Positions 154 through 64,000 of a stretch of DNA of 64,000 nt are shown in pieces. Each line of letters starts with the position of its first letter. Position 1 is the first letter of the stretch. The DNA is from a virus (taxonomy: Duplodnaviria > Caudoviricetes). The notes below the pieces were generated by a model. That model worked only from the letters and a program-made list of their open reading frames with translations. It did no database searches and had not been told where the DNA came from. The position numbers and the translations under genes were made by a program. The stretch is from positions 66,978 through 130,977 of the IMG/VR virus record IMGVR_UViG_3300005546_000001; one strand, 5' to 3'.

Positions 154-342
154 ACTATTTTAGTTCCCAAACATACCACCCTCTACCATTACAATACATA
201 CATTTCCTAGTTGGTGCAGCATCTATCTGAGTTTCTGTGCGAAGATGGTGATCAATTTTAACTTCTCCATTGCCATTGCAAACATGGCACTCTTTTGGTG
301 ATGGAATAAATCTTGGCGGTGGTGGCATATTATTATGCTACT

Positions 343-1344
343 TTATTTCTTTGATTCTGTCAATTCTAAAATCATCGGGAGAAGTTCTCGTTCCACTCTT
401 GATTGCCAAGTATGATTTTCGTGGACTTCCGCGCAGCCCATTGCTGCGATTACATCCCTATCTTCTTGATCCTCATAAAGATAAAAATCAATCTTCTCTA
501 TGAGTTGATCAATGGAATCCCAAACATCTAAATCATTTCCAACTTCCCAATCTTTTTCAATTCCATCATAATTGTGAGAAAGAACCATCGCCCGACATCC
601 AAGGGCGCGGAGTAGCCTGTCGCTCGAATAGCGTTCAAGATTATAGTGACTCAGATTCACGGCTATTTTAGTTGACCTGAGTGCTTCGGCCTCAACTGGT
701 TCTAAAAGTAACGGTGATGAACTCGGCCCAGACCAGCCATGCCCCGCTATCAAAAATCTAGAACCGTATCGCTCTGTCAGTCTAGCCACCATATCGCGCC
801 TGAATTGTGAGAGTGGAAAAGCATCCCCAAAGTTTGATCCCAAAAACAGGATTTCCGGCCAGTCTCCTCGCGGCCCATCTGGTCGATACAAAGTTTCATC
901 AAACCCAATGTCCATGTAAGAAGAATTAGCACCTTTTTCTTTCATGACAATTGGATCAGCTTCGTTGCTAAAAAGACTTAAATCCAGCACTCGGCCCAGT
1001 TGCCAATACCATTCAGGCAATGGCTGGCGTACATCCCCGCTCCACGCAATTGTTACCCCCGGCAGCGCGGCAGCGTCTTGCGGCGAGAGAACTGTTGGAT
1101 CTTGAAGCTGCATGAAAATTACATCCGGAGCGAACTCCGTTGCGGCTTTTAGAATCCCCGAAGAAGTGTTATCTCCGCGCTGTCTAGCCGCGCACCAATC
1201 GTATTCTAAATAATCTGTCGAAATAGAACGCAGAGCATTGCGCAGGGCGTGCTGGGGACTGTTTTCTACCACTAAACAGACATGAAGAATTTTCAATCTG
1301 GCATCTCCTCCATCCAAACTTTTCCACAATCTGTGCATTTGCAT
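343..1344 (-). CDS. Glycosyltransferase (CgeB / Glyco_trans_1_2-like, GT-B)
   Basis: PDVIFMQLQ, GFDETLYRP, ILFLGSN, KIAVNLSH..YSSDRLLRALGC, LIEKIDFYL, HTWQSR match the CgeB-type C-terminal domain. True start may be a few codons internal. Confidence 0.8.
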   Translation of the reverse strand: MQMHRLWKSLDGGDARLKILHVCLVVENSPQHALRNALRSISTDYLEYDWCAARQRGDNTSSGILKAATEFAPDVIFMQLQDPTVLSPQDAAALPGVTIAWSGDVRQPLPEWYWQLGRVLDLSLFSNEADPIVMKEKGANSSYMDIGFDETLYRPDGPRGDWPEILFLGSNFGDAFPLSQFRRDMVARLTERYGSRFLIAGHGWSGPSSSPLLLEPVEAEALRSTKIAVNLSHYNLERYSSDRLLRALGCRAMVLSHNYDGIEKDWEVGNDLDVWDSIDQLIEKIDFYLYEDQEDRDVIAAMGCAEVHENHTWQSRVERELLPMILELTESKK

Positions 1345-1895
1345 TTGTCACAGCATCCATCTGAACAAGTCCCGTAGACTTCGTAGTTATTATGTTCGCA
1401 CTTTATTTCTTTTAGTCTTTGGTTAATCAATGGAATCAAATCATCTGTTGTCATCTTATTCCCTTGTAACAGATAATTTCTGTAGAAAGAATTTTTTGTA
1501 ATTCGGCAATCCACATTAGCACAACTTCTCTACGATCTGGATTGCTCCATTCAAATTGTTCAAAATTTAAATATCTGGTTATTGCATTTGATAATTCGCG
1601 ACATCTTTGTCGTTTCCAAATTTGTTCTGGCATTATTCCTAGTGGTGGCTCATAATAATAGTTATTCATTTTAATTTTTAAAATTCATTCAAGAGTCCAG
1701 CATCTTCTAATGCTGACTCAAACGATTCGAGTACAGCCACTGCATTCCTCACCATGTCGAGCTGCGCTGAATTTGCTAAAAGGAATTCTGGCTTTATATA
1801 ACCGCCCTCTGTAATATCGTACCAAAAGCCATCTGAACCCCCTTGCGGTTCAGCATTCTCTTGAAACTTCCAATCAATTTTTTCAGGTCGTTTTT

Positions 1896-2588
1896 TCATT
1901 TTATCTCCAAATAAGTTGGTTCTAAAAGTAAGTATTCTCCAAGAACTTTATTGTTTTCGTCATAATTTCTAATATTGGAATTGTGTAGATGATAAGCTTT
2001 TATGCTTTTACTTGGATTTATGACATCATAGCCCGCTTCATTTAAAATAAAGCAAAGTCGATTATCGCATCCGGGAATTCCAGGACTAAAATAAGAATTG
2101 TCAACTGCTGCTTGCTTTATCGGCCCTTGAAAAATAAAAGCATCCTGTGAATCTATAGCCACCCAATGTGCTGAATTTCCATTTCCATCCACATCCCACC
2201 TACTCAGCGCCCAGCAAACGTTTGTCATGTCTTGCGTTTCCACAAGAAGGAGTGAGTCATCAAAATAAATATCTGAATTTTGAATACAATTTATATCGGT
2301 TGGGGATGTTCTTTCGTTGATAATTGTAAACAAATCTCTGAATGTTGGACGTTCAAATTGATATAGCACTACTAAATTTTTTGCAAATTTTGGAAGTTTT
2401 GTTTCTGCTCCTTCCACTAGAACTATAATTTCATCAAATAGTTTAGAATCAATATTTTTTTGAATACATATATCGTACTCATTCCTACGCTCTATATTTT
2501 TTTCATCGTAGTATGTGGTTATTGATCTGAACATGGATTTATAATCCTTCCTATCAAAGTTAGATGTGCCATTACTTTTTGTATCCAA
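1896..2588 (-). CDS. Glycosyltransferase-like (GT-A) protein
   Basis: NSDIYFD (DxD-like), ALSRWD, SQDAFIF, GIPGCDNR, HLH motifs; lies in the glycan cluster. Likely start is MFRSITTYY near 2534. Confidence 0.55.
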   Translation of the reverse strand: MDTKSNGTSNFDRKDYKSMFRSITTYYDEKNIERRNEYDICIQKNIDSKLFDEIIVLVEGAETKLPKFAKNLVVLYQFERPTFRDLFTIINERTSPTDINCIQNSDIYFDDSLLLVETQDMTNVCWALSRWDVDGNGNSAHWVAIDSQDAFIFQGPIKQAAVDNSYFSPGIPGCDNRLCFILNEAGYDVINPSKSIKAYHLHNSNIRNYDENNKVLGEYLLLEPTYLEIK

Positions 2589-3665: not shown

Positions 3666-4625
3666 TCATTTAAGTTTTTCCATTTCTGCATCAACCATCA
3701 TTTTCACTAGTTCAGCAAACTTTACACGGGGTTCGAAGCCTAAAATTCTTTTGCTTTTGCTTGCATCTCCTAGCAACAAATCAACTTCCGCTGGCCGAGC
3801 CAATTCCTTGTCGTATTCCACATAATCTTCCCAATTTGGGAGTCCGGCATATTCAAATGCTAATTGCACAAATTCTTTTACCGAATGTGTTTCTCCAGTT
3901 GCTATTACAAAATCATCGGGAGTTGGGTGCTGTATTATCTTATAAATCCACTCAACATACTCAGGCGCATAACCCCAATCTCGTTTAGCATCTAGATTCC
4001 CTAGAACTAATTTAGTTCTGCGCCTAGCAGCGATTTCTGCCGCTGCGATGGCTACCTTTCTACTTAAGAAAGCTGGTCCTCGACGCGGCCCTTCGTGATT
4101 GAAGAGAATACCGCAGTATACTTTCATTCCATAAGCTTCCCGCCAAATTCTCGCAATATTATATGCAGTTACCTTCGATGCTCCATACGGAGAACGCGGA
4201 TAGAATGGTGTGTTTTCATTCTGCGGAGTTTCCTGAACCTTTCCAAACATTTCGCTCGAACACGCTTGATAGATTTTACAATCTATCTTCAGTATTCTCA
4301 CAATTTCCAAAATTCTTAGTAAACCATTTGCGTTGATATCCTGAGTGATCCCTGGATGATCATAAGAATCTCTAACCTGACTCATTGCCGCAAAATTATA
4401 AATTTCATCTGGTTGTGATTTTTCTATAGCTGCAAAAAGGCTGGTTGTGTCCTGCATGTCCGCAGTATGAAGCGTGATTTTATCAATTACGTTTGATAGA
4501 TTAGAAAGATTTGGTTGGGAGATTCTTCTGGCAATTCCGTGGACAGTGTAGTTTTTAGAAACTAAAAGATCGGCTGTGTGTGAGCCGTCCATTCCGGTTA
4601 TTCCAGTTATTAAAGCTTTTTTCAT
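3666..4625 (-). CDS. gmd: GDP-mannose 4,6-dehydratase
   Basis: KKALITGITGMDGS, PDEIYNFAAMS, SSEMFG, FYPRSPYGASK, GILFNHE, GNLDAKRDWGYA, DDFVIATGETHSV, RPAEVDLLLGD. Confidence 0.97.
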   Translation of the reverse strand: MKKALITGITGMDGSHTADLLVSKNYTVHGIARRISQPNLSNLSNVIDKITLHTADMQDTTSLFAAIEKSQPDEIYNFAAMSQVRDSYDHPGITQDINANGLLRILEIVRILKIDCKIYQACSSEMFGKVQETPQNENTPFYPRSPYGASKVTAYNIARIWREAYGMKVYCGILFNHEGPRRGPAFLSRKVAIAAAEIAARRRTKLVLGNLDAKRDWGYAPEYVEWIYKIIQHPTPDDFVIATGETHSVKEFVQLAFEYAGLPNWEDYVEYDKELARPAEVDLLLGDASKSKRILGFEPRVKFAELVKMMVDAEMEKLK

Positions 4626-4947
4626 AATTTATTCTCGGTTGCGGGAGTCCCGATTCTCCGACCCGCCCTTGTCCCATCTCCTGATTTGGAGCCCAGAGTT
4701 TCCTCCGGTTAGCCGAGGACCGTGCGATTTTATTTATCGTTCTTCTCTACACTAAACCGAGAAATTCAAAATCGGTGCGGATGTTTGCTAAAGAGGATCG
4801 CCCAGTACACCCGCACTAAAACTGGTTTTCATTGAAATTAGCGCAGCTCAGGTCGCTTGATGCTTCGTTTGTGTAGTCCAGGTCTGCATTTAGGCACTTG
4901 CTTTCTACAACCCCAACCGCATCACCCTCAATGACTGCGCTACTAAA

Positions 4948-5337
4948 TTAGTTGTCATCCGCATAAGGCTCTATGTTGAGAATGAGCCCCTCGCCCATAC
5001 TATTCTTTATGCTGTTACGTTTCTGAACAAAATTCCCATGCTCATAAAATATGCCGGCTTCGTACACGTTTTTGCTTGGTCGAATCTTTAGGCGAATTTG
5101 GCGATCTGCATCTGCGTGAAAAGAAAACGGCAGTGAATACTCCTGCTTGGCGATTTTGATTATGGCACCATTTGGCAACTTCATCCATCCGTCAACTACA
5201 ATTGGAAACTTTTCTACGCCTACTCCATGAATTTCAACCGTGTAGATTCGGCTCGGTTGTCGTTCCTGAGCCGTTCCGACAAAACATATCCCTAACATGA
5301 AAACCACTAAAACCAATACCTGAATAATACTTCTCAT
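4948..5337 (-). CDS. Exported hypothetical protein
   Basis: N-terminal hydrophobic signal peptide ending GTA|Q; RBS AGGAGGG upstream. Confidence 0.6.
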   Translation of the reverse strand: MRSIIQVLVLVVFMLGICFVGTAQERQPSRIYTVEIHGVGVEKFPIVVDGWMKLPNGAIIKIAKQEYSLPFSFHADADRQIRLKIRPSKNVYEAGIFYEHGNFVQKRNSIKNSMGEGLILNIEPYADDN

Positions 5338-6449: not shown

Positions 6450-6989
6450 TTAATAAAATCCCTTTAAAGCTTCTTGAGCAGCAGCTTTTGCAACTCGATA
6501 CATTGTTCTTCTATCACCGTCGCGTACTTTAAATTCGAAATCAAAATTATCTTCATTATCAAGAGCTATTTCTGACGGATGATTTGGGTCGCGATCATCA
6601 GCTACCCACTGTGAACCATCCGCGTTTAAACGCGATATTTTTATTGCCATTCCATTTTCTTTACAAAACTGAAATTCGTTTGGGAATCTCATGTCAGCTA
6701 TCAGCGCAATATCTGGGGATTCTTCTTCTATTTGATATTTAAGACAATCTACCCAAACATTCTCATTAATACTTCGCATGATATCTGTACCAACTAATTG
6801 TAGAATTCTCGGATCTTTATCTTTCATCCACCCAATTGCACGGCAGAATGATTTTAAAGCTGTTGCAAACGAGTAAATTTCAACTACGACTCCTAGTTCT
6901 GCTTCTTGTATATTTTCCCGTATAGTCCGAGCGAGAAGATTCTTCCCCTGTCGCGCCTTATACCCAATTCCAACTATTTTAGTTTTCAT
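6450..6989 (-). CDS. Deoxynucleoside monophosphate kinase
   Basis: KIVGIGYKARQGK P-loop, SFATALK, RILQLVGTD, IADMRFPNE, HPSE. Confidence 0.85.
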   Translation of the reverse strand: MKTKIVGIGYKARQGKNLLARTIRENIQEAELGVVVEIYSFATALKSFCRAIGWMKDKDPRILQLVGTDIMRSINENVWVDCLKYQIEEESPDIALIADMRFPNEFQFCKENGMAIKISRLNADGSQWVADDRDPNHPSEIALDNEDNFDFEFKVRDGDRRTMYRVAKAAAQEALKGFY

Positions 6990-7579
6990 ATAATTTGTAA
7001 AATATCACTCCATCCAAAAACCCTTGTTATATTGTGATTCAATTCAACATCCTGATTCCAAGGCTGATTAAACAAAAGAAGTTCCTTGTTTGGATAATCC
7101 AGGATTTCTTTAGCTAACTGCGGACTGTCATCTACATACAAATCGTAATCCAGTTCTAATTTAGAGTGTCTTCCAAACGCATCTAGGGCGATGTAAGTAT
7201 CGTATGGAAACCTGTGGTATTGCAGCCAGTTTATTGAGTCCCCAACTGTGTTACGATTTCTTGTTGAAACTATGTCCACCCTATCAGTTGGCATGTTATA
7301 TTTTTCTTTTAGATATTTTACTCCATCTACGGAATCATGGATGACTGGCATCTTTCTCCAAATCAACCATGCTAAATCGAAGTAGCGCCACATAAGATGC
7401 TTGGCTGCTTCAATCCCAAACTTTTCTTCTACAACTTGAAAGATACTGAAGTACTTATAAGCATCCCAAGACTCCCAATCTTCTGTAGAATAATTAGTTC
7501 CAAAGTCTGTGTTAAGTTCTCGCAAAAAAGCATCTTGTAATCCCGCAAGAACTCCATCCAAATCAACTGCAATACGCAT
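6986..7579 (-). CDS. 5'(3')-deoxyribonucleotidase, HAD superfamily (NT5C-like)
   Basis: IAVDLDGVLA, YVDDSP, LFNQPWNQ, RVFGW. Confidence 0.85.
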   Translation of the reverse strand: MRIAVDLDGVLAGLQDAFLRELNTDFGTNYSTEDWESWDAYKYFSIFQVVEEKFGIEAAKHLMWRYFDLAWLIWRKMPVIHDSVDGVKYLKEKYNMPTDRVDIVSTRNRNTVGDSINWLQYHRFPYDTYIALDAFGRHSKLELDYDLYVDDSPQLAKEILDYPNKELLLFNQPWNQDVELNHNITRVFGWSDILQII

Positions 7580-9682: not shown

Positions 9683-10914
9683 GCCTTCAAGAATTTACTT
9701 CTATCAAACAAAGAATTTGTTTCTTTTAGCTTGTCCGCAAATCGCTTTGCCATGCAACAAATATAGCAGCGCCCGTCGCCCGCTACTGACGGCAACTCAT
9801 GATGTGAGTTTAGTAAAACTTCTGCAATCAATTCAAAATCTTTCCTAGTCATATTCCTCCCACTGCCACCAAAATTCTACAAAATATTCTGGATTCTCTT
9901 CGTCTTCCACCGCCGGTTCATCGCGATCTTCCCAATCTTTTGGATCGCATGCGTAGTTCATTTTTCACCTACTAATTTAGTCGCCGAATCTTGAGTATTT
10001 CGTCGAGCCCTTTGTCAAAAGTCCCCCAAACTTTGATGGCAAACGCAGCCTCTCTTCTGCGCCGAAATGCAAGAATTGCATTGTGATCACCATCTATCCA
10101 TTTTTTAATTTCAGTGTCCCAAATCCCCCAGAGTTTCATGCTTCCTCCGTATCAAGTAAAATCTCAGATCGTAACCTAATAAATTCATCCGGTAAAGGAA
10201 TTGGCGCGCCTCCATTGCTCATCATCTGATAATTTATGTGCATTTTATCCATCACTGGCGTTCCCAAATTAAACAGAATTGCAAAACACATGTTCGGGCA
10301 GAGTTTTGTTGGAACATAAAAATATCCGTCAAAAATATCTGCGAGGATAAAATCGGCTTTGCAATACGGACAGCGCCCGTTACGAATTCTGTGCCGCTGT
10401 CTGAATTTCCTGAATAACATTTGCTAGCTTTCTCACTGATTCCAACTTCCTTGCTTCTCTTTCGTCCCAAGCATTCAAGCATGTTTCGGAACAAAAATCT
10501 TCCATCCATGCACATTTTTTGCAGAATGCATCGCCACAATAATTACACTCATTAAGTTTTTTTGAGAATCTGATAGTCATTCAGTCTCCCCGTCTGGCAT
10601 ATTAAAAGCACATTTATCAGAACAAAAATCTGGATAATTAGAACAGTTCGTGCAGAACGGTTCTTCGCAATTCCCACAAATTTCAATACATTTTGAATCT
10701 TTCATTAAAACTTCCTTGGATTATTTGAGGAAATCCATCTATAGCTTGTCCCTTCCGTTGGTTGCGGCCTTAAATGTTCATGAAGTTCTTTACTTTCATG
10801 TCCACACCATTTACAACGAATCCCTCTATACATATCATCCGAAAAGTTTTCATAGTTTTCAGAGCCACACTTAGAACACTCGACTTTCTGTTTCAAATTA
10901 ATATACATTTTTTC

Positions 10915-12039
10915 CTAAATCCTCGCGGGACTGACGACGAATCGGCAGTCAAATAAATCGTCCACATGTTCAAAAATCACCCTGCTCATTTCTTCAGCCC
11001 CATACCAAATTCTAACTTTTTTACTTTTGCCCACGCCAGCCGCGAAATAGTCACTCTTAAAGCCCTGAGTCAGTTCGTTACTCCCTGCCCCACCTTCAGA
11101 ATCTATCTTCGTAACTACCGAACCGTCTTCAGTGCCCGCGATTTTTATCCCGTCTCTTAAAAAGGACACCGCAATGTAGCCGTGAGAATCATCTGACTTC
11201 GTACCAGCGCTAGTTAGTTTCAAAGCACTCAACAATTCTCCAGAATCTACCTCTATAAACGACATTCCATTATTTTTAAACAGCGCTGAAACATTTGGCG
11301 GGCCTTCTATCGCCGCCGGACATGAATATCTGATTCCTTGCGTCGTTCCGATACTTAGTTTGTTTTCGGAAATCCCGAGATAAATTGTTTCTTCCACATT
11401 TGAGAGAACTTTTTCAAATGAATCAAGAAAAATTACCGGAATCAGCGCGTCTGCTTTGTTTATAATCGCTTCGTTTTTATGAGAAGCTCCGGCTATTTTA
11501 TGATTTGACGCGGCTACGGCCCACACCTGCCCCGGCCTGAAAATCAATCGGATACTTTGAAACATCCCCGCTCCACCATCTACCAGCGCCTTGCGAACTC
11601 GCTGCAAAAGTGCCCGGAGAGCTGCGACTTCCAACGGAATTTCAAGTGGCGGCGCTGACCACGCTGGCGGCAAAGTTTCGATGTGGCGCACGGGCCACCG
11701 CGCTACTAAATTAGTTCCTGAAATCCTGACGCCCGCACCCCCAGAGTCAGTCAGATAACTTGATATTGTAAGAATTTCTGATGAAGAATTTTGACACGTT
11801 GTAATAAATTTGGAAAGTGGTAGAAAAGTATCGCCATGCTCAAGAACTTCCGCTTCCAAATCTATTTCGAGTACTTCATGTCCGTTAAATATTCTGAAGG
11901 AAGCTGTATCATCCTGAGCGTGGAGAACGATGAATTCTGAAGCGGCCTTGTCCTGCGCGTTTTTACTAGTCGTTCGCGCAACTGAAGAAATTAATGACAG
12001 AACTTCCTGAAGAATGTCACGTTGGATTTTTATTTGCAT
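10915..12039 (-). CDS. dnaN: DNA polymerase III beta sliding-clamp-like protein
   Basis: 374 aa; MQIKIQRDIL start, VAASNHKIA (cf. VATDGHRLA), GFKSDYF (cf. FNxxYL), terminal VVSPAR (cf. LIMPxR). Divergent. Confidence 0.7.
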   Translation of the reverse strand: MQIKIQRDILQEVLSLISSVARTTSKNAQDKAASEFIVLHAQDDTASFRIFNGHEVLEIDLEAEVLEHGDTFLPLSKFITTCQNSSSEILTISSYLTDSGGAGVRISGTNLVARWPVRHIETLPPAWSAPPLEIPLEVAALRALLQRVRKALVDGGAGMFQSIRLIFRPGQVWAVAASNHKIAGASHKNEAIINKADALIPVIFLDSFEKVLSNVEETIYLGISENKLSIGTTQGIRYSCPAAIEGPPNVSALFKNNGMSFIEVDSGELLSALKLTSAGTKSDDSHGYIAVSFLRDGIKIAGTEDGSVVTKIDSEGGAGSNELTQGFKSDYFAAGVGKSKKVRIWYGAEEMSRVIFEHVDDLFDCRFVVSPARI

Positions 12040-12645
12040 TTATGACCACTGCTCCGCCATTGCATTTGCAATTCCTTGAAAGGTTTTGCTGCGCACCTTT
12101 TCTCTCTCTGCTGGCGGTAGAGATGCTGCTTCGACATACCAACGTGCCATGCGTTTTCCACTTTTAAACATTGTATATTCTGGCTCAACTAATTTAGTTG
12201 GTACTAGTGGTGTAAGATTTTTCAACCATAAGCAAGTTTTCTTGGCTTCTGTGTGCCCAAATTGAAATGGCTGAATAATTTGATTTGGTTTTCTCCATCT
12301 TGTACTCATTATTCCAACAGGATTTTCTATACAAATTTTATCTATATTTGCATTTACAAGACTCATAAAGAATTTAACCGCATCTTCTCTATCTTGCACC
12401 CTTGTTGGAAATCTATCTTTATATTCAGGCTTAAACCATTTATTTCCTGTAGTTGTAAGATATGTACAAGGTGGGTGTGCAACCATCAAATCCCACTTTT
12501 GTTTTAGCATTTCTGAAATATAACCCTCAAAATGCTGGCCGGGAATTTCCGTTGGCAGTAAATCACAACTCCAAGCATCATGCCCTCTTGCTTTAAAAGC
12601 TTCTCTAACTATTCCGCTGAATTCACACGCAATTAGTACACGCAT
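12040..12645 (-). CDS. Phage DNA cytosine methyltransferase-like protein
   Basis: RVLIACEFSG, WSCDL, AHPPCTYL (catalytic PC), IENP, QPFQFGH, KKTCLWL, RSKTFQGIA. Confidence 0.8.
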   Translation of the reverse strand: MRVLIACEFSGIVREAFKARGHDAWSCDLLPTEIPGQHFEGYISEMLKQKWDLMVAHPPCTYLTTTGNKWFKPEYKDRFPTRVQDREDAVKFFMSLVNANIDKICIENPVGIMSTRWRKPNQIIQPFQFGHTEAKKTCLWLKNLTPLVPTKLVEPEYTMFKSGKRMARWYVEAASLPPAEREKVRSKTFQGIANAMAEQWS

Positions 12646-12750: not shown

Positions 12751-13755
12751 TCATTTCATTATTTCCTTCCACGGACTCACTACTATTTTAGTAGCCCCCG
12801 CCAGTAAAAAATCGTCAAGTCCTTTTCCAATCTCGGCATCCCACGTAGCCACGGAGACTGTACAGCCCGAGCGCGCCTGGATAGCATCGTACTGTCTTTG
12901 CATTGCATTTCTAACAAATTTATTTGTCTGCCAGTCCATATCATAAGCAAAAACTAGAGAATCAAAATTCAAACTAGCGTTGGCAATTTCCTGCATCGCT
13001 GCATCTGTCCCGGCTTTTCCTAGAATCGGCAGGCCAGTTAACATCCCCACCAAATCAGATTTTAACATCCCCTCAACTATATATGCAACTCTCCCCTTAC
13101 CCGGAACCCAGTGTACCGGACATCCACTGCTTGCACCGGAATCCATGAGTTCTTTTTTCCCGTCCGGAAGAATTTTAAGATACGAACTAAACCACTTGTA
13201 TTTAGTAGTTTCCGAATACGTGCGCATTTGGAGCGCTCGAATTCTTCCTTGTATATCTCTGACGGGGATGAGAAATCCCGGTCGAATATTTGCCTTCCAA
13301 TTCGATTGCTCCCTAAAAAATCCAGGAACGCGGTCGAGTATAAAACCTTCTCCAGAAAGTCTTTCGGCAACGTCGTCAGTTGTTCTGTAGTTAAGCTGGG
13401 CAATTTGTTTCTCCGAAAGTCCACGAGAAAAAAGTGATTCCTTTTCTCTGTCTTCTAGTGTGAGCATTTCTAACATCCGGTTATATACGGCGTGGCGCCT
13501 GTGAATGCTCGCAGGAAGCGGTCGCTGTGGGGTGGCGTTTGCTGGCGTTTCCAGACCGTTTGCGAGGCTTTTATGAATGAACCGACCATCAGATGCCACC
13601 CGGTTACTCTGGCTTCTTAAACAAATAGAGATTCGTCGCCCGTTCCTTATAATGTAAGTGCAGCCTCTATTTGAGTTACAAGCCCAGCATCTGTCTGCGT
13701 AGTTAACCCTTTGGAAGCCACGGCTAAAATAGTTGCTCATGGATAAACTTACCAA
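12751..13755 (-). CDS. DNA primase (Zn-binding domain plus DUF3854-type Toprim)
   Basis: CWAC..C N-terminus, LFSRGL, LIPVRD, LQMR, KYKW, IVEGMLK, AYDMD, KGLDD. Confidence 0.8.
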   Translation of the reverse strand: MVSLSMSNYFSRGFQRVNYADRCWACNSNRGCTYIIRNGRRISICLRSQSNRVASDGRFIHKSLANGLETPANATPQRPLPASIHRRHAVYNRMLEMLTLEDREKESLFSRGLSEKQIAQLNYRTTDDVAERLSGEGFILDRVPGFFREQSNWKANIRPGFLIPVRDIQGRIRALQMRTYSETTKYKWFSSYLKILPDGKKELMDSGASSGCPVHWVPGKGRVAYIVEGMLKSDLVGMLTGLPILGKAGTDAAMQEIANASLNFDSLVFAYDMDWQTNKFVRNAMQRQYDAIQARSGCTVSVATWDAEIGKGLDDFLLAGATKIVVSPWKEIMK

Positions 13756-48652: not shown

Positions 48653-48662
48653 TTACACCTCC

Positions 48663-48691
48663 AAAAAAAGGAGGCCGCCGAAGCAGCCCCC
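48663..48691 (-). terminator. Intrinsic terminator between Ubl and E2
   Basis: GGGGGCTGC-TTCG-GCGGCCTCC followed by T7. Confidence 0.85.
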
Positions 48692-48703
48692 TAATTGTTG
48701 CAA

Positions 48704-48955: not shown

Positions 48956-49098
48956 TTTGTTCTCCTACGAATCATTCGAACGATTCGCTGGGGTTGCCAG
49001 CGGCGGCGCCCATTCCGCATTTCGGGCCACTAATACGGGAGCAACTGTCTCCCTGTACTTCTGGCGCAGGGCTGGGCCGGACATTCTCCGGCGGGAAT

Positions 49099-49209
49099 TT
49101 AAGTATTCAGATTTTTTGGTTTTTTGGGAATGTAGATACGTCGAGCAACAATTACTGGCTGGCCATACTGCTTTCCTTGTGTGTGACCCCCGGATCCAGA
49201 GTCAGTGCT
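49099..49209 (-). pseudogene. Remnant of a 42878-43279 paralog
   Basis: Own translation SGGHTQGKQYGQPVIVARRIYIPKKPKNL* versus SGGHTAGRQSGNCIVASKIYIPKNAKDL. In-frame TGA just upstream and no start codon in this frame. Confidence 0.55.
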
Positions 49210-50795: not shown

Positions 50796-50892
50796 TGCGC
50801 CGACATAATGGGGGATTGTCGTTTATTTGACCGAACTTGCCGCACTAATACCCATAGCGCGAGAATAATTAGAACCAGAACAATTGTGTCTG

Positions 50893-51237
50893 TCATGAGA
50901 ATTCTCCTACCATCAAATCCCAAGTACCTGCACCATGTCCAATACAGTGTTCCCCGTCAACTTTATGGCGGGTAGCATTTTCAGCGCGTACTACTATCTT
51001 TCGTAACATTTCTAGCGGTGTGATTATAGCACCATATTCATTTTTGATTTCATACAATCCAGCATCATCCTCGTCTTTTGTCCACCCCCAATCTTTCAAA
51101 TCATTTATCCCCAATTCTGGGTAGACATGCAGAGCAAAGCACCAGCCTGCGCTGCTTTTTCCGATGTGAAGTGGCTCTTGTTGGTGTCCACAAGTCGGGC
51201 ATTTTGATTTTGTGTACAGATAATAATTTGTTCCCAT
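50893..51237 (-). CDS. Conserved phage hypothetical protein
   Basis: MGTNYY..CPTC..LHIGKSSAGWCF..NEYG..GEFS pattern. Confidence 0.6.
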   Translation of the reverse strand: MGTNYYLYTKSKCPTCGHQQEPLHIGKSSAGWCFALHVYPELGINDLKDWGWTKDEDDAGLYEIKNEYGAIITPLEMLRKIVVRAENATRHKVDGEHCIGHGAGTWDLMVGEFS

Positions 51238-51827
51238 CTCAGCCTCCTACTCGTCAAACTGACCTTCGACAAAAGTTACATGGAGACGAGCGATCCTTGT
51301 CGGCGCCGCCCCAGCGTCCGCTTCTTTCCTAGTACTCCATCCAATGTCTGATTGCTTCCCATCGCCGCTTCTTGGATAGCAGTTCATCCATACTTCATGA
51401 GTAACTGGGGTGTTGACAATATCGTAACCGCTATCGTTGGCCTGGTATTTTCGGCCATCTTCATAGAATATCTCGATATACTCTGTTCCATCAGATTGAA
51501 GAACAGCGGCAACAATGGGAAACTTATGGGAGTGGCTTTTTAAATCAACCGCCAGCAACCGCGCCTTCCGCCCATCCCTTGTCTGGACTTTCGTAGCCAG
51601 CGGGTTTTCCTTGTCAAGAACTAGAGTTTTCATGTTTTTCTCCTTTTGCACAAAAGTCACATAAATAGCCTTTTCTTCAAGCTTTAGACAACTACATAAA
51701 AAACACCCGCCATTTGCGCACGTGTGTTCGTCTGCTCTATGTCCGCAAACACACCTTGTACAAAAGTCACATAGATAGCCTTCTGGAAAATTTCTGTGGT
51801 CACACCCGTTTTTAGCCATGTTTCCTC

Positions 51828-52241
51828 CTAGAGTTTAATAACTGGAACGTTGAACTGTTTTGACCAGTTTCTTACAGCAACCTTGTGCTGATAGAGCGCG
51901 ATTGCGGCACATTCTATACCGCCATTAATTTTGCTTGTTATTTCCCGGACTATTTCTACACAAGTATCTCCGCTTTCTATAAAGTCGTCAATAATGACGT
52001 ACCTTTTTGCACCAAAGTCTCCCTCAACAGAACGCATTGAATGTGAGGATTCTTTTCGAACCATAATCAGAGTTTTCTTCATCTCGCGTGCTAAGACTGA
52101 TGCAATCAGCGCTCCGCTCATTCCACGAAATGCAAAACTGTCAAACTCTATGCCAGCGAGCTTCATTCTGGCGCTTTCGATGATTTTTTCGATTCTTTTT
52201 GGTGTGAATGCATATTTGGAGTGTGCCACTACGAGTTTCAT
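51828..52241 (-). CDS. Type I phosphoribosyltransferase-like protein (paralog 2)
   Basis: RGMSGALIA, MVRKE, VIIDDFIESGDT. Confidence 0.8.
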   Translation of the reverse strand: MKLVVAHSKYAFTPKRIEKIIESARMKLAGIEFDSFAFRGMSGALIASVLAREMKKTLIMVRKESSHSMRSVEGDFGAKRYVIIDDFIESGDTCVEIVREITSKINGGIECAAIALYQHKVAVRNWSKQFNVPVIKL

Positions 52242-52938
52242 TTCTGATCCTCAATCTCTTTTAGAAGATATCTCCCATATTCCAGTATGGTATAAGCAAC
52301 TACTTCTCGGATATCAACCCCACCTATAAATCTGAAATCTGATCCTTTATTTTTTCTGTTGTTTTAGGCATTTTTTATCTCCCAAATTATCTCCCCAGAA
52401 GGAGAGCGAACAGGTCGTCTGAGTTCCAGAAACAATTTTTTCTTTATGGAGTGAACCTGCCCGACACACCCTGTGTGAAATTGCTTTGATCCATTTTCAT
52501 CTGAGATAGTGTTGCAATCGTAGCAGCGCCAAATTCTGCGCGGCGGCGGAATTATGATTTCAGGCATTCTCCCTCCTAGTTGATGGTCAGGACAAGGAAT
52601 GAGGTTGAAAAACGTCTCCAAGAGGCTGAAAACGTCACGGCGAGGCACTTTACGGAGTGGTTTTAGGACTGTTTTCCGTTTCTTGGGCGACTATTTTAGT
52701 TGATTGTACTTGGAAATTGCTTTCCAGTCTCTATTCTATCCAAAGCACAGCGTGAAAATACAGAAACATGCTCGCACAAACTATTTTCTTCGACCGCGAG
52801 CATCGCCCCGATTAGCGCGTTCAGGACGGAGGCCGCCGCCAGTTGCCCGGATATTTCTGCAATTTCGGCAGTGTCTTTTAGAGTGTTTATAAAGTTCTGT
52901 CTTATTCTGAGTTGTTCTTCGATGTTCATTTTCCCTCC

Positions 52939-52996: not shown

Positions 52997-54745
52997 TTAA
53001 GCTAGCAAACTCAGTAAGGAATCTTTTACTGGATTGCTCAAATCCACGTCCGGATTTTCTGTTACTATCTCAAATCCAGACGCTATGAGTAGTTCTTTTA
53101 GCGGAAGGAATGTATTGAGATTTTCTATCACGTAGTCTCTGTATTTCTCTGTCGTACTTGTGCCAGATACTCTGCCACGTCCACTTCTGAATTTAGCAAG
53201 AAAGAAAGATTCTTTAGTCAAAACTCCGAGAATATTTTCTCTTGATTCGCTAGTGAAATCTACAGAGAAAATAATGTTGTTTGGATCAACCATGTAGTTC
53301 CGACCCATTCTCTTGATGTCCTCTTGAGCAAAGAACATCTTGAATTTGGCTCCTACCTCTTGACCAGAGTAGATGTTTGCTTTTACAATACCGGGCGTAA
53401 ATCCGCTCTTTGCATATAAAAGTTCCACCGCCTCCGGGTCAGCAGATGTCATGTCACCGCTGTACACAATTGAATTAGCGGAATTTGTATAAGCCGCATT
53501 CCAACCAAATTTGCGCCCATCTAGTGAGAAGAAACTCAAATCGATGTCTCGGGCACCTTCATTCCCTCTCCAGTGAATTCCTATGATACTGTTAGACCTT
53601 CTTAGTGGGATAGAGGAGCCTAGCGGGAAATTTCCTATGAAGGATTTTTCAGAAGTTGGAACTGTCAGATTGATATTCTCTGGCAATTTAATTCTACAAG
53701 CTTTTGCTGAAATGCTCTGAACCAGTGATTCATAAATTAGAGCGCCCTGTTGATGTAAATTCTTTTGATTAACGCTTGCATTCCCTTCTTGTATAAATAA
53801 TTTTCCGTTTCTGATTCCAAACGCTCTATACCCGCATTGATTCAGCCTTACTAAAATAGTCTGAAGCAAAGAGACTTTCCTGAAATTGTTTAACTCTGGA
53901 AGCCTACGGACAAATTCCTTATCAATATCTCTGTTTAGAACATTCGTCCAGTAGCTTTCTGGCATTGGCCTGTGATTTGTAACTGCCAATCTTCGCAGTC
54001 TGTTAATTACTGGCCTGTCGGCGCCAGCGCATCGCATTGCTAAAAACAACGGTTTAAATCTTAAAAAAACTTCCGCCAACCGCTCCATTCCAAATGCAAA
54101 TATCAGCTTTCTCACAGGCTCTTTACTTGCCCTGATCGCGGCGATAGTTTCTCTGTCCTTGATTAGAAGAGTCTTGCCAGTCTTCAAGAACACAAGAAAC
54201 CTGACAAATTCAGTTGTGTTACGTGGAAATGTTCCGGCAGCCTTACAAAAATGCATTAAGGCTTCGCGATTCTTTATAGAATCAACGTCCACGTCAGCGC
54301 CGCCAAGAACTACAATGATGTCCTTGATTGTGGCTTCAGCCAAAGCCGCTCCGCTCTGCAACATTCCCAGTGCTCTACTCTGAGCCTCTTCTAACGTAAT
54401 TTCTTCCAGAATCTTGATTGAAGATGATTTCAATTCTTTGACTTTTGGGTTTTCGTTTGGAAGGTAAACTTCTCCCTCAAAATTCGTTCCGTATGTTGAA
54501 GCATAATGGAAGATTTGATCAATAAACAATTCAAACCTGTTTTTTGACGTGACATCCTTCCAAGTTTTGTAGAAGGTAGCGTTGTGGTTTACCTTCTTCT
54601 CTTTCAGCCATTCTACAACAGCCAACGAGCAAAGCTGTGGCGGTACTACATACCCTACCTTCAACGCTAGTTTGTTGGTATTGTAAAAATCACGCGGTGA
54701 TTCAGTAGCCAGTGCTTTGCCAAACAATCTCAGAACTTCAATCAT
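52997..54745 (-). CDS. 582-aa protein: large helical N-terminal region plus TerD-like C-terminal domain
   Basis: NATFYKTW, DQIFHYASTYG, FLRFKPLFLA, INRLRRLA; C-terminal GIHW..DIDLS..GWN..YSGDMTSA..AVE is TerD-like. AAGGAGA RBS. Confidence 0.65.
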   Translation of the reverse strand: MIEVLRLFGKALATESPRDFYNTNKLALKVGYVVPPQLCSLAVVEWLKEKKVNHNATFYKTWKDVTSKNRFELFIDQIFHYASTYGTNFEGEVYLPNENPKVKELKSSSIKILEEITLEEAQSRALGMLQSGAALAEATIKDIIVVLGGADVDVDSIKNREALMHFCKAAGTFPRNTTEFVRFLVFLKTGKTLLIKDRETIAAIRASKEPVRKLIFAFGMERLAEVFLRFKPLFLAMRCAGADRPVINRLRRLAVTNHRPMPESYWTNVLNRDIDKEFVRRLPELNNFRKVSLLQTILVRLNQCGYRAFGIRNGKLFIQEGNASVNQKNLHQQGALIYESLVQSISAKACRIKLPENINLTVPTSEKSFIGNFPLGSSIPLRRSNSIIGIHWRGNEGARDIDLSFFSLDGRKFGWNAAYTNSANSIVYSGDMTSADPEAVELLYAKSGFTPGIVKANIYSGQEVGAKFKMFFAQEDIKRMGRNYMVDPNNIIFSVDFTSESRENILGVLTKESFFLAKFRSGRGRVSGTSTTEKYRDYVIENLNTFLPLKELLIASGFEIVTENPDVDLSNPVKDSLLSLLA

Positions 54746-58081: not shown

Positions 58082-58549
58082 TCAACCATGATGAGCCTCC
58101 GCAATCCCCCGTTCTTCCCCCAAGAATAATTCTTCCAAGTCCATGATTTTTGCATGACTGTTGAAGTAAACTTCTCCTGGAGCATTAAACGTCCAGCCGG
58201 TAATAATTGAAACCCCATTTACAACAGTAATGCAAGGAAAAAGATTGTTGCTTCTTTTCGCGGGAGGAATCTGTTCTGCTTCAAGTGGTGGTTCGGGGCG
58301 TGTCGGGGCTCTTTTTGATGCTTGATTTGCTTTCCAGACTTTCTGCATTCCCCGTAACCCAACAACTTCAAACTCGGAGACTTTACCCATCTCAACTAAT
58401 TCTGGGAGAATCTGTCTTAACGTGGCTTGTGAGAGAGATGATTTTTCAGCGAGTTCGTTGAGTGTCCAAGTTTTTGAATCGCTGTTCAGCGCGGCCAGAA
58501 TCATTTTCTGGCTTTGCTGGCGCCGCCGTGTTTGCCAGTTCGTATTCAT
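58082..58549 (-). CDS. Winged HTH DNA-binding protein
   Basis: ILAAL..WTLNELAEKSSLSQATLRQILPELVEMGKV. Confidence 0.7.
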   Translation of the reverse strand: MNTNWQTRRRQQSQKMILAALNSDSKTWTLNELAEKSSLSQATLRQILPELVEMGKVSEFEVVGLRGMQKVWKANQASKRAPTRPEPPLEAEQIPPAKRSNNLFPCITVVNGVSIITGWTFNAPGEVYFNSHAKIMDLEELFLGEERGIAEAHHG

Positions 58550-59891
58550 GGGAGCCTCCGGTTTCTACGCGGGTTCAGAGTCTGAGATTATTGCAAAAAC
58601 CAAACCCATCCCAGCAGAAAATGTAGCCCAACCATACATTTCACAACCAACACTCACTCCAGCAAAGGCCATGAGTGCCATCGCACACGCAACAAGCTTT
58701 TCTTGCCTTGTTTGTATTTAGTCTCCTAGAATTCATCCCCAACAATCAGAGATTCTTTTGGATTGGGTTGGCTGTGTTTTTTCAAGAACTCACCGAGTTT
58801 CTTGTGAAGGAAAGTGATTTGTTCAAGATTGAGAACTGGTCTGTAAGCATACTGGCCTTTGATGTCAAATGCGAGTTTGTGCATTTCCGGTGACATAACT
58901 TCTAGTCGAGAAGCGTCTGGGCCGCATACACCGCTGCTTTTGAACGTAATCATGTTTGTTCTCCTTATGAATCAGAATGCCCAACGAAAAAACATTCCCC
59001 AAGATACACCGCATCATCCCAGTTGGATTTTTTGTCCAAGACTTCTCCTGCCATCATTTCGGTGTATTCTAAAACAACACCCTTGATTCTAGCATAATAT
59101 GGGCGCCAGCCAGAGCCATCAATTCGTTGGCAGAGTTCTTTTTGCTTTTGCGAGTACCAGAACTTTCCTGTCATTTTGTCCTCCAAGTGAACGGTTCTCT
59201 TCAAACTGAAAAATCCCGTAAATCGCACCGTAGCGCGTTCTAGCGGTATTGTAGGTAAGAATTTAGACGTGGTTTTTGGGTTTTCCAGCAACTATTTTAG
59301 TTGTAGAACTCTATTTTGACGCCGATGCGTTGTTGCTGTGAAATTAGCAACTTTCCCAAAGCCTCTTCGAATGTTTTACCAACTTCCCAAAATCCCGGAT
59401 CATGGGCAAACTGAGCAATATAATCCGTAGCTCGCCGTATTACTTCAATTTTCATCTTTTCCTCCCGATTTTCTGAATCACCCGCGCGTGCGGTGCTTCG
59501 CACGCCAGTACATTTTCAGCGGCCTTTATAGCCTCGCTGACAGTGGATTCAGGCGGTAAAGCTACATCAATTAGTTTCCATCCGCACCAGACTTGTACTT
59601 TAATCACTGTTGATCCTCCATGCTTGCGAAGTTCCATTGAAGTTTTGCCGATAGCCAGACAGCGCCCAACTAAAATAGTTTTCACTTGGATTCCCGTCTA
59701 CGTCTGACAGTTTCGGAACGGACTGGCATTCAGCGTGCTCACAGCCATCGAACCCGTATCTGCAATTCATTATAGTCTCCTCGACTTTCTGACCATGCTA
59801 ATCAGACTGTTGATGATCCACTTTTTTGAGTGTTCGTACTGCAATAGGGAGTGCAGCACAGAGAAGGGCTAGGACAATTGTTGGGAACATA

Positions 59892-60782
59892 CTATTTTTT
59901 CACCATTACAAACCCAAGTTCTTTCGGGCCTGTTGGAATTGCTAACCAAAGCCCGTTTTTGTGAGCGTCCCGAATTCCTTTTGTAAGTAAATCTGGTGGA
60001 TAATTTATCCATTTTGAGATGCTGGCAAAATAAACATCCAATCCTTTTTGTGCATCCCTCGCAACCCACGCATCCCACGCATCCCACGCATCCCACGCAA
60101 CCCACGCATCCCTCGCATCCCTCGCATCCCACGCATCCCACGCATCCCACGCATCCCACGCAACCCACGCATCCCACGCATCCCACGCAACCCTCGCATC
60201 CCTCGCATCCCACGCATCCCACGCAACCCACGCATCCCTCGCATCCCTCGCAACCCTCGCAACCCACGCATCCGAAAACTCTTTTAGCTTCCAATCTTGT
60301 AAGCCGCGATAATCAAGAGAAATTCTGAGATTTTCTTTTACTAGCTTGATATCAAGGTTTGGCCTTTTTAATGCTTGAAACCACAAAAATTGTTCAGCGG
60401 CCATTGCACTTTGATGCTTCCCAAAGGATTTGGAAAACTCAAACATTGCTGTTCTTACTTCTTCGTCGGTAGCTTCGCGGAGTAGCTGAACAGAAGACGT
60501 TCGCCGTTTATCTCTTCGCTCTATTGAATCTTCAGAGCCCAAAACTTTCGAGATGTTGGCTGCCCACCCATCTCGCCACATTCCGGCGATTTTGAAGCAA
60601 GTTTGTATGTCTTTGCAGAAGTGCCATCCCCCACCTGTTCCACATTCTTGTTCCGAAGTATCCAAAGTAACCTTTGGGGTTGTGAACGGGTAATTTCCAC
60701 CAAACAGCGGCTCGCCACCTTGAATTGGTGGGCGGAAGTCGTGTGTTAGGATTTTCCAACCTTCTCTGATGTTTTCAGTCAT
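59892..60782 (-). CDS. Phage protein with (W/R)(D/V)A tripeptide repeats
   Basis: 296 aa with GAGGAG RBS; N-domain WKIL..CG..GWHFC; 24 tripeptide units. Confidence 0.75.
60052..60267. repeat. 24 x 9-bp tandem repeat GCAWCCCWC
   Basis: Read directly; units vary only at two A/T positions. Confidence 0.95.
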
Positions 60783-61393: not shown

Positions 61394-61442
61394 TGGACCG
61401 AGCCGGAATCGAACCGGCCATCCCAGTCGCATTTATCGGCCC
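61394..61442 (-). ncRNA. 49-nt tRNA-like element (acceptor stem plus T-arm, no D or anticodon arm)
   Basis: GGGCCGA / TCGGTCC-A stem with G3-U70 and A73; GCCGG-TTCGATT-CCGGC T-arm; intergenic. Confidence 0.65.
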
Positions 61443-62489
61443 CAAAGAGCGATACCACGAATGGAACATGGTCAAAGTACCATAATCGCTCGGCTTCAAT
61501 TATGAACTGGTGGATAATGATATCGGCTGCACATTTCACAATAAGTTGGCAAATCATCCAAAGTTATTGGAGACATTCCGGCGTGCTTTCGGACCAAATT
61601 CCAAATTAACAAAGCATTTGGGTTGGCACCAGTGTCTTGATCAGTTCTGAAGTGTTCTCTTTGAACCTTGTTTACAAAATCCCGGTCGATCATGTTTTTA
61701 CCTCCAAAGTTTTCAAAATTGCTAGACTTCAAATGTAAATAATATTCGGCGCAGCCCAGAACGCTATTCCGCGCTCATGCCGAATTTCACCTTGAGTTAG
61801 GAATACCATTGCATTCCAGAGTGTTTTGACTTCTAAAGAACCCATCCCGAATTCTTTTTGGCACTCAAACCGAACGTTGTTTAAGATTTTCACAGCTTCG
61901 TCCATAAAACACCTCCAAAGTTTGGAATAACTCGACTTCAATTACGAAAGCATCATGGATTTAGCCCTATGTGTTGAAAAACGGATTCGGGGCGAGACCA
62001 TGTTTTCTCGGCTTGCTCCACAGCCGCAACAAACCATTCTCGAAACGGAGTTGGGTCTTCCAGTTGTTCAGCAAGCTCAATGTAATTCAGCAGATGGCCT
62101 AATTCTCCATGTGAATTACTGTTGAAGATACGCTCACTGTAATCTTCAATGTTCAACTTTTTCAACGCATCTTGAATATTCATATTCTACCCCCTTCAGT
62201 TTTGAATTGTTGCAAGCAGGACTTCTTATGAAAGGTTTTGTGTTTTGGAAGTATCCCATTTGTAGGTTTCTACTGGACAACAAACAGGGCATTTGCTCAT
62301 GAAAGTGGTAATAATCCAAGGTGGAAAAAGCCATGAAATTTCATGTCTTACGCTAAATATGTATGCGACTAAACATTCAAAATGAAAAGCGGCATCACAT
62401 TCGGTTTCAGAAAAATACCCACAACAGAAAGCAGGATTAGACACTGTTTTTGAACAGATTGCACAATTCCATTGCCCTTTTGATATCAT

Positions 62490-64000
62490 TTTTATCCTCC
62501 GATATTAGCATAATGACTTCTCGGAAACAATCAGAAGAACTCAGAATCCCGGCAGGCCAGTGGTAACGAGCCACATGCCACTTGTTCACTTAAATGCTCA
62601 GTATGAGCGGGTTGCTAGCACTGCTCGGTACATTCAAGTACCCGGAGACGGAGTGCTGATTTGTTCGCGAACGGATTCATACCTGTTTCTTCTGATTGTT
62701 CCAAAAAGGTTTTGCGGTTTTTCAATAAGGTAGGGAACCGCGACCCAAAAGGCTATTTTCTGGTTTAGATGTAACAGGTGGGATTTCTCCGACAACTAGA
62801 TTAGCGAGGCAGTTGCTATAAAGAGCGAACATCAGTTCGTCGCCTTTCGGCTGCAACTTCGCGTGGTTGATCTAGATTGCCTGTCACCGCTATATAGCTA
62901 TAGCGTTGATTCGTGCTGAAGTACCAATTCAGCACATGCCCCTTACCCCCGCATCGTTTTGTAGTTTCATCATGGAATTGCTCCCATGTTCGATCCCGAC
63001 TGCTAGCGCAGTCGCCCGGTCAGGGAACAAAAGATTGCTAAATCCTTTGTCGGTTTAACTTCGGAGGGTTACGACTCGCCAAGCTCTCACCAAACTGGTA
63101 GTTTTAACAGCGAGTACCTCCGATACCGTCTTAACAGGGTAATCTCTTTTCGAGTACGCCGCGCACGTAAGGCAGCGCAACTAAAATAGTTGTCCTAAGA
63201 CTTGTCGTGCCAACGAAGTAAAGCAAACCAAAGTTTGCTAACCTCTTTCGATTCAACGAATAATTGGATTGAGGTCACAGGAGGAGTATTTTAGCCACGC
63301 TTCAGAATCTTGCGAACCCGGAAACGTCACAATTTGTGACACATCGGTCGGCGGATTCAACGCGGAAATAATGAACGCGCCACATGACGCAGTTCACCCA
63401 AAGCAGTATTCGCGCTAAATGCTGTCAATAATAGCAATGCGCTCTGTCAAAGCGGCTTACATGCTACACTCACTAGCCTTTTAGCCTTATCTATCTGCTA
63501 TCTGCGATGTTCTGTGAAGCCGCTAGGCTTCTGTGCGCAAGCTCACTGGCATTGATAAGCCGAATGAGCTTGACTGTTTAACCGGAGTAGCATGCGCCGA
63601 CCATTCCTGAACCGACGACTAGACTTCGCAAAGAGTCGTTGCTACCCGTAGCACAGAATATTCACAGCTAGGCTGTGTGCTATGCCAGCAATCCGCAACT
63701 AACTAGCCAGGGTATCAGTCACCCGATACCTGCGCCCGTATCACTACGACGCGCCCTTTGTAGTGCGGTTTGTTGCTTTGCCTATGTCACCATAGGCTAG
63801 GCACTCGAAAAGGCCAGCAATGAGCTTGTGAGGCTCACGGCTGGCCGGTTATTCGGTCGGTTGACCTACGTTAGACGGTCGGAGTTGTCGGACTCGCAAG
63901 CTCGCTGGCAGGGATCAGCGCAGGCTTCACAGCGTCTTTCTGTGCCTTTGTTGCGCCTTCCGGGAGTCCCGCGATAGCTGCTTGCCATTCCGCGCGGAAT
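62490..64000. other. ORF-free, helix-rich region; candidate large structured ncRNA(s)
   Basis: No ORF of 60 aa or more in any frame; many perfect stems, including long-range ones (62526-62539/62687-62700 and 63512-63521/63923-63932). Confidence 0.6.

Follow-up and report, generated by a model that had tools for sequence, protein, structure and literature searches.

ACTA-WWW-TAGT, a palindrome dispersed through a Caudoviricetes phage genome, as the putative docking-site array of a dimeric phage protein

In the phage genome IMGVR_UViG_3300005546_000001 (Duplodnaviria; Caudoviricetes), a record of 130,977 bp in IMG/VR, the 11-bp palindromic word ACTA-WWW-TAGT recurs about once every 2.6 kb, inside genes as well as between them, and related phages have kept it. 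We suggest, at a probability that we put at roughly 0.6, that the copies form an array of putative docking sites for a dimeric DNA-binding protein of the phage, and that this array would serve a genome-wide process rather than promoter control. An initial annotation of the window, by which we mean the whole stretch of 64,000 nucleotides analysed here (bases 66978–130977 of the record), had drawn attention to the word and proposed a dimeric phage protein acting genome-wide. That general proposal fits the symmetry of the site, its A/T centre, the lack of orientation bias, the selection acting on it and its conservation in the clade. Coordinates given below refer to the window unless they are marked as record positions. 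The record carries a 120-bp terminal overlap and its completeness is rated 100%; the structural arm, from about 5.2 to 54.6 kb, has plus-strand genes, and all other genes are on the minus strand.

The enrichment of the word is both strong and sharp. Searching ACTAWTTTAGT on both strands (ACTA-WWW-TAGT when written symmetrically) gave 28 exact copies in the window as compared with 0.09 in dinucleotide shuffles (maximum 2), and 50 copies in the whole genome, for which order-3 and order-5 Markov simulations predict 0.5–0.7. Copies with one mismatch exceed expectation by about ten (22 genome-wide vs 10–14 expected), and for copies with two mismatches no genome-wide surplus over expectation was found. 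The exact copies are spaced slightly more evenly than random sites would be (coefficient of variation 0.74 vs 0.97, p = 0.016). All 28 copies that had been listed by eye in the initial annotation were verified at their coordinates; the shuffles and the Markov models give 0.09–0.7 copies by chance, and the excess also persists under every Markov and synonymous-codon null model applied. Among the near-matches listed there, those at 662, 6426 and 13723 indeed differ from the word by one mismatch, whereas the one at 41782 is a two-mismatch variant. This last sequence (41782–41792, GCTA-TTT-TAGC) is itself symmetric, both outermost bases of the core being altered jointly.

The arms ACTA and TAGT, which are invariant in the 50 copies, form an inverted repeat around a 3-bp A/T spacer. 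Beyond the core, the preferred bases continue the symmetry (left C in 32 and A in 28, right T in 33 and G in 28 of the 50 sites), so that the full consensus in this genome is the 15-bp palindrome CAACTA-WWW-TAGTTG; a duplex that represents the site is CAACTAAAATAGTTG. The centre triplet always consists of A and T, with AAA/TTT in 26 sites, AAT/ATT in 20 and other W triplets in the remaining 4. No orientation bias with respect to transcription was detected, the sense-strand centres being AAA in 16 sites vs TTT in 10, and ATT in 11 vs AAT in 9.

The target of selection is the DNA word, to which the protein sequence yields. More than half of the 50 sites lie in frame within genes (28, or 56%), 15 lie at gene boundaries and 7 are intergenic; 13 overlap stop codons and 8 fall within the first 15 codons of genes. 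About half of the sites are found at gene boundaries or in translation-initiation regions. As two of the three frames of the motif hold TAG or TAA on both strands, a genic copy can be read almost only as ACT-AWW-WTA-GTN. The corresponding tetrapeptides, T[KNI][IL]V, occur 28 times in the predicted proteome, an 8-fold enrichment over the 3.6 ± 2.0 obtained when residues are shuffled within proteins, and all 28 are spelled with the motif. Shuffling synonymous codons within genes leaves 3.4 ± 1.6 motif copies inside coding sequences, as opposed to the 30 observed. One 625-aa gene contains two copies, and single copies are located deep inside genes of 1833 and 1854 aa. In the related phages described below, 19 of 21 T[KNI][IL]V tetrapeptides are likewise spelled with the motif; the distant phage Pam2, sampled over a 42-kb piece, has none. 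The coding contexts reported in the initial annotation stand: in-frame TKIV, TKLV, TNLV or TILV copies are found in the gmd, clamp, methyltransferase, primase-like, nuclease and 582-aa genes, the gene-start contexts MTKLV, MTKIV and MKTKIV are present, and stop-codon contexts were borne out at 4942, 22231, 25650 (here abutting a TGA), 52690 and 59291.

The word is also accommodated in genes for stable RNA. In tRNA-Gln(ttg) (record positions 50838–50909), one copy is made up of bases of the anticodon stem and the variable loop, and another takes 11 of the 14 bases that separate tRNA-Gln(ctg) from tRNA-Ile(gat). The cluster predicted by ARAGORN comprises 27 tRNA genes at record positions 46496–51838, outside the window.

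Relatives, all of them uncultured metagenomic contigs, were found through a protein search with the DNA polymerase, and for each a segment of about 15–22 kb around the polymerase gene was sampled. The closest, L122 (75% polymerase identity, GC content 47%), has 9 copies in 21.9 kb with the usual flanks AACTA..TAGTT. L127 (57% identity, GC 55%) has 5 copies in 14.6 kb and the flanks CCACTA..TAGTGG; L124 (54%, GC 37%) has 6 in 21.8 kb, usually flanked as TACTA..TAGTA; L125 (53%, GC 40%) has 3 in 21.9 kb within AACTA..TAGTT; and L126 (42%, GC 37%) has 4 in 21.8 kb, again as TACTA..TAGTA. Pooled, these five contigs hold 27 copies in 102 kb, where 0.40 would be expected. A more distant contig, L132 (GC 35%), has 2 copies in 19 kb, and Pseudanabaena phage Pam2, with a polymerase identity of 26%, has 1 copy in 143 kb. 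The 11-bp core is thus kept in all six related contigs, and the outer bases vary by lineage yet stay symmetric, as would be expected if a dimeric reader co-evolved with the site. Searches elsewhere were less productive: neither DNA nor the 645-aa and 212-aa proteins encoded in the window led to a close relative in the cultured-phage collection, an IMG/VR search with polymerase peptides found no relative, and an exact 15-mer scan of IMG/VR gave just single chance matches in unrelated contigs.

Conservation in related phages, one of the checks that had been proposed, revealed that the motif is retained across the clade, mostly at shifted positions. Where this genome encodes TKIV or TNLV, orthologues have VKIT, NKIT, VHIT or LQII in gapless alignments, which indicates that copies arise and decay by substitution. 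An origin of the copies by insertion, as in mobile elements of the REP, MITE or RPE-like type, was rejected because orthologues differ by substitutions and not by insertions or deletions, and because an 11-bp unit is unable to insert in frame. Some positions do persist. The site in the gene for the 212-aa protein is present in four genomes and the terminal site of the primase-like gene in two, and the boundary sites upstream of the RNase H, polymerase and helicase genes are found in roughly the same places in L122, the relative with 75% polymerase identity.

Promoters rarely coincide with the sites. We identified 31 sigma-70-like promoters on sense strands, of which one overlaps an exact site; two sites with one mismatch also coincide with such promoters. 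The initial annotation had claimed promoter overlaps at three exact copies. That at 37145 holds, as the site supplies the −10 box of TTGACA-N17-TAAAAT. Those at 40575 and 44215, where an adjacent TTGACA had been taken for a −35 box, do not hold because no −10 box follows at 16–18 nt, and TTGACA reads better there as an extension of the flank (GACA-ACTA) than as a −35 box. Phage_integrase gave no match in the six frames of the complete record, in a search that did not include serine recombinases. Six frames of the genome likewise yielded no candidate for the ParB N-terminal (CTPase) domain PF02195, searches of the genome with the domains DUF3102, Sigma70_r4, Sigma70_r2 and HTH_17 gave no match, and a helix-turn-helix (HTH) of the repressor type was not found in the genome. 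The phage looks lytic. On this evidence the sites are neither promoter operators nor inserted elements, and they do not indicate lysogeny.

We propose that a two-fold symmetric, sequence-specific protein encoded by this phage clade recognises the site, and that selection would keep the number and spread of sites and not their positions. According to this proposal, sites would arise by point substitution wherever they are cheapest, that is in spacers, stop codons, first codons and stretches of protein that tolerate T-[K/N/I]-[I/L]-V, and they would be lost as readily as they are gained. Since almost no sites lie at promoters and the phage has a lytic appearance, the array most likely serves a process that involves the DNA of the whole genome. 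One option is that the sites load or nucleate a protein by which the phage DNA is organised or marked, another that the protein so loaded blocks transcription of the long operons or attenuates it.

The helical 212-aa protein encoded at 27061–27699 is the best candidate for the reader of the motif, an assignment that we make tentatively. It is present in 6 of the 6 relatives sampled, with 34–67% identity to the five that were compared; its gene usually lies 1–2 kb upstream of that for the DNA polymerase, and in four genomes carries the motif at the same codon. The predicted structure is all-helical with a mean predicted local distance difference test (pLDDT) score of 80. Residues resembling those of a recognition helix read TTVGN in the lineages with AACTA flanks and Q-S/T-x-N-N in the others; this match between residues and flanks also tracks phylogeny and so is not independent evidence. 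Distant profile matches and ESM Atlas neighbours, weak and scattered, include DUF3102, ParB-HTH/DUF1016, the plasmid-partition family PF49 and sigma region 4. In one distant homologue the protein is joined to an N6_N4 methylase, and the Atlas feature match that ranks first is to a cluster automatically named 'DNA modification methylase'. As to the two binders suggested in the initial annotation, 27061–27699 is conserved in all relatives and remains plausible. The other, the winged-helix protein at 58082–58549, is unlikely: among 5.8 billion proteins it had no homologue besides itself, despite the existence of close phage relatives, and a protein without homologues would hardly be the reader of a motif that is found clade-wide, barring a highly diverged orthologue that was missed.

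Several points weigh against a dimeric phage protein as the reader, or against the 212-aa protein in that role. The bases at ±1 of the core covary within genomes (52 of 77 pairs are Watson–Crick pairs vs 42.7 expected, p = 0.002, pooled), and such covariation is predicted by a stem and not by independent reading of two half-sites. A reader encoded by the host, or a sequence signature of the host at large, may be compatible with the data. For the 212-aa protein, searches of Pfam, PHROG and PDB sequences gave no match, its fold matches are unconvincing (best Foldseek E-value 0.3, best VIA-align Z 5.3), and its ties to DNA-binding families are weak leads only. In addition, the co-occurrence of this protein with the motif is confounded with phylogeny, as all relatives were found through syntenic genes.

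The covariation raises the possibility that the site acts by folding, in mRNA or single-stranded DNA, into a small hairpin or cruciform with the arms as stem and WWW as loop, and serves as a priming, RNase or translational-control signal. The pairs at the flanks are A-T, T-A and C-G in different lineages, about half of the sites lie at gene boundaries or where translation is initiated, and the computed folds reach −4.3 kcal/mol for a 6-bp stem and −9.9 for the GC-flanked form. However, 22 of the 50 sites (44%) are unpaired at ±1 and covariation is absent at ±2 and further outward, G-U wobble pairs lend no strand-specific support (4 vs 4), and the bare A/U-rich stem of 4 bp around its 3-nt loop is of marginal stability, with just −1.5 kcal/mol computed even for the TACTA form, whose stem has 5 bp. 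A stem also leaves unexplained why the arm bases are invariant across the clade and why the loop is restricted to A and T; both orientations of the centre occur on the sense strand, and sites are also found in a tRNA gene and in spacers that look untranscribed. We consider that the site probably does not function as a hairpin and rate this explanation as rather unlikely.

That the site could instead be targeted by a sequence-specific enzyme of the phage (a nickase, for example, or a methyltransferase or other DNA modifier) that marks phage DNA chemically as self is unlikely. Exact matching as sharp as this is usual for sites that enzymes recognise, a DNA methyltransferase, glycosyltransferases and sugar-pathway genes are encoded in the genome, and the methylase fusion and methylase-named Atlas cluster described above point in the same direction. 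Yet the methyltransferase gene adjacent to the clamp is absent from the syntenic position in L124, L125 and L127, all of which bear the motif, a recognition site would not need a 70-fold enrichment, and symmetric nicking would yield double-strand breaks.

A role of the motif as a promoter element, in which TAWWWT, resembling a −10 box, would be read by a host RNA polymerase redirected by a phage factor, comparable to the T4 late promoter TATAAATA, is improbable. TAWWWT is contained in the core on both strands, the number of copies would fit a set of phage promoters, gene boundaries are enriched in sites, and the few coincidences with sigma-70-like promoters noted above could be cited in its favour. 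It is difficult to reconcile with a site that is symmetric and unoriented although the genes of each arm run one way, with 28 of 50 sites inside genes and some of them deep in the 1833-aa and 1854-aa genes, with the turnover of positions among relatives, or with a genome in which no sigma-like gene was found.

Finally, it is very improbable that a host factor reads the motif or that the motif mirrors a host-wide signature. A bacterial-genome scan with the polymerase profile gave just matches of 26–32% identity, in metagenome-assembled genomes. Although exact short words with positional turnover and density selection are known from Chi, DNA uptake sequences and cyanobacterial HIP1, the core is invariant across phages of 35–55% GC that probably infect different hosts, its outer bases change with the phage lineage, the distantly related Pam2 has a single copy, and the known Chi and uptake words are asymmetric.

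Returning to a dimeric phage protein as the reader, the closest precedent is found in the Cluster O mycobacteriophages (Corndog and others), whose genomes contain a 17-bp dyad repeat, TGTTCGG-NNN-CCGAACA, with invariant inverted arms of 7 bp (Cresawn et al., 2015; PMC4351075). Corndog has 34 of these repeats, 14 intergenic, 10 near the 5′ ends of genes and 10 internal, with TTT or AAA as the spacer in 29 of 34, and every Cluster O genome has more than 30 (PMC4351075). They are denser in the non-structural arm, lie mostly off promoters, are unoriented and have very few one-mismatch copies; the phages have no integrase or partition system, and the repeat has been predicted to bind a dimeric protein, its function being unexplained (PMC4351075). 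The two motifs share every feature at the level of pattern, among them the arms, the A/T-rich spacer of 3 bp, the dispersal between, at the 5′ ends of and within genes, the higher density in the non-structural arm, the small number of one-mismatch copies, the scarcity at promoters and the lack of orientation. They differ in that the sequences are unrelated and the phage clades as well, that the motif described here has an invariant core of 4 bp per arm plus two softer flank bases, and that 56% of its sites are in frame within genes and visibly rewrite proteins, unlike those of Cluster O. It persists, with turnover, down to 42% polymerase identity, whereas the five Cluster O genomes are close and have most positions in common. 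The genome of Ryadel, which is related to Cluster O, measures 72.7 kb. Within the literature that could be searched, no later paper was found that explains the Cluster O repeats, which were reported in 2015.

The stoperators of Cluster A mycobacteriophages, bound by gp71 of L5 or gp69 of Bxb1, and the conserved inverted repeats bound by the phiC31 repressor provide dozens of near-identical sites for one phage protein. Stoperators share with the motif this genome-wide distribution of near-identical sites, some of which are in transcribed regions. They are, however, asymmetric, oriented with transcription and serve lysogenic silencing (PMC4351075). Here the sites are palindromic and unoriented, and the searches described above gave no match to Phage_integrase or ParB_N. 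Stoperator-like repression in a lysogen, which the initial annotation had listed among the possible functions, is therefore unlikely.

A further likeness is to parS, to the NBS sites of Noc and to the OB sites of KorB, which are dispersed palindromes, many of them off promoters, at which a dimer loads and then acts at a distance. On plasmid RK2, KorB loads at OB palindromes as a clamp that slides to its targets, over up to 1.5 kb (PMC11790492), and sites about 2.6 kb apart would suit a mechanism of this kind. In contrast to ParB and KorB, no ParB N-terminal domain is detectable here, and copies are several times more numerous than in those systems; the 212-aa candidate has its weak Atlas leads to ParB-HTH and DUF3102. 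One may speculate, and with more reserve still than for the identity of the reader, that an undescribed non-ParB protein (the 212-aa, DUF3102-like protein) reads about 50 palindromes that mark the chromosomes of a clade of large lytic phages, as an analogue of Noc-NBS or KorB-OB in self-recognition or in organising replicating DNA, and that the Cluster O repeats could be accounted for in this way as well.

Dispersed invariant palindromes in lytic phages were thus already known from Cluster O, where the mechanism is unexplained. The genomes of that cluster are too similar for three of the points made here: the quantified selection on the DNA word, the finding that the number of sites and not their position is kept over deep divergence, and the lineage-specific symmetric outer bases, which provide a handle for pairing site variants with protein variants. 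The candidate readers are also narrowed to clade-conserved proteins, the only annotated HTH protein having been removed. If the proposal is correct, the need for the array would be strong enough to dictate amino acids in core replication genes, and the reader, if found, may point to a mechanism that phages generally use to organise or mark their DNA. In annotation, the motif accounts for the recurrent T-K/N/I-I/L-V tetrapeptides and for many stop and start contexts in the clade. The exact copies in the window and the two candidate binding proteins are listed in Table 1.

Table 1. Exact motif copies and candidate binding proteins in the window (ORF, open reading frame; RBS, ribosome-binding site)
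Positions	Feature	Context	In relatives
154–164	Motif	Overlaps TAG stop of a short minus-strand ORF; next ATG immediately after	
4006–4016	Motif	In frame (TKLV), GDP-mannose 4,6-dehydratase gene 3666–4625	
4942–4952	Motif	Provides TAA stop of ORF 4948–5337	
6973–6983	Motif	Codons 3–6 (MKTKIV) of ORF 6450–6989	
9971–9981	Motif	Overlaps TAG stop of a 55-aa ORF; then RBS of next gene	
11705–11715	Motif	In frame (TNLV), sliding-clamp gene 10915–12039	
12188–12198	Motif	In frame (TKLV), DNA methyltransferase gene 12040–12645	
12782–12792	Motif	In frame (TKIV), 3′ end region of primase-like DUF3854 gene 12751–13755	Copy also in L125, none in L122
15120–15130	Motif	Gene start, MLITILV from ATG of ORF 14930–15139	
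17375–17385	Motif	Codons 2–5 (MTKLV) of ORF 17047–17388; overlaps stop of upstream ORF	L122 orthologue: copy two codons off
17569–17579	Motif	Codons 2–5 (MTKIV) of ORF 17385–17582; overlaps stop of upstream ORF	
19799–19809	Motif	In frame (TKIV), PD-(D/E)XK nuclease gene 19369–20349	Orthologues VKIT, NKIT or VHIT
22231–22241	Motif	Provides TAA stop of ORF 22237–22587	
25650–25660	Motif	Abuts TGA stop of ORF 25660–25860; ~150 nt upstream of DNA polymerase start	
27176–27186	Motif	In frame (TNLV), conserved 212-aa gene	Position kept in L122, L125, L127
28280–28290	Motif	In frame (TILV), codon 8 of ORF 27898–28311	
29507–29517	Motif	In frame (TKIV), ORF 29287–29694	
31723–31733	Motif	Overlaps TAA stop; 15 nt upstream of ORF 31190–31708	L122: copy 30 nt upstream of RNase H gene, orthologue of ORF 31190–31708
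36131–36141	Motif	Overlaps TAA stop; AGGAGG and ATG directly after	
37145–37155	Motif	Intergenic; its TAAAAT is the −10 of a minus-strand TTGACA-N17 promoter	
40575–40585	Motif	Intergenic; sense-strand TTGACA precedes; no −10 at proper spacing	
44215–44225	Motif	Intergenic; sense-strand TTGACA precedes; then RBS and ATG	
46958–46968	Motif	Within 645-aa gene, read in the one other open frame (NYFS)	
52690–52700	Motif	Provides TAA stop of ORF 52696–52929	
53850–53860	Motif	In frame (TILV), 582-aa gene 52997–54745	
59291–59301	Motif	Boundary, stop of ORF 59297–59503/start of ORF 58965–59291	
59669–59679	Motif	Codons 3–6 of ORF 59452–59685	
63180–63190	Motif	ORF-poor stretch 62490–64000	
27061–27699 (−)	212-aa protein	Best candidate reader; all-helical, HTH-like stretch LPVTTVGNWL	Clade-conserved
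58082–58549 (−)	Winged-helix protein	155 aa, IclR/HTH_24-like; sole Pfam-recognisable HTH in genome	

Some minor features were seen in passing. The minus-strand block 44883–48652 encodes a ThiF/E1-like protein (44883–45533, with a ThiF match) together with a 379-aa and a 645-aa protein, neither of which has a Pfam match. In L132, a 119-kb contig of the Joint Genome Institute, a gene of the TnpB/OrfB_IS605 type is located at 6705–7385 within the replication module, and a perfect palindrome of 19 bp, GCTGACTAA-T-TTAGTCAGC, lies at about 2864–2882. A GC-rich island in the window (32001–36000, 52.5% vs about 42% elsewhere), which falls within a 4.4-kb stretch without the motif (31733–36131), may be recently acquired DNA. 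Lastly, the 9-bp tandem repeat GCATCCCAC at 60052–60273 (24.7 copies, 91% matches) lies within the minus-strand ORF 59892–60782, where it would encode a tripeptide repeat, and it constitutes the second strongly over-represented word family of the genome.

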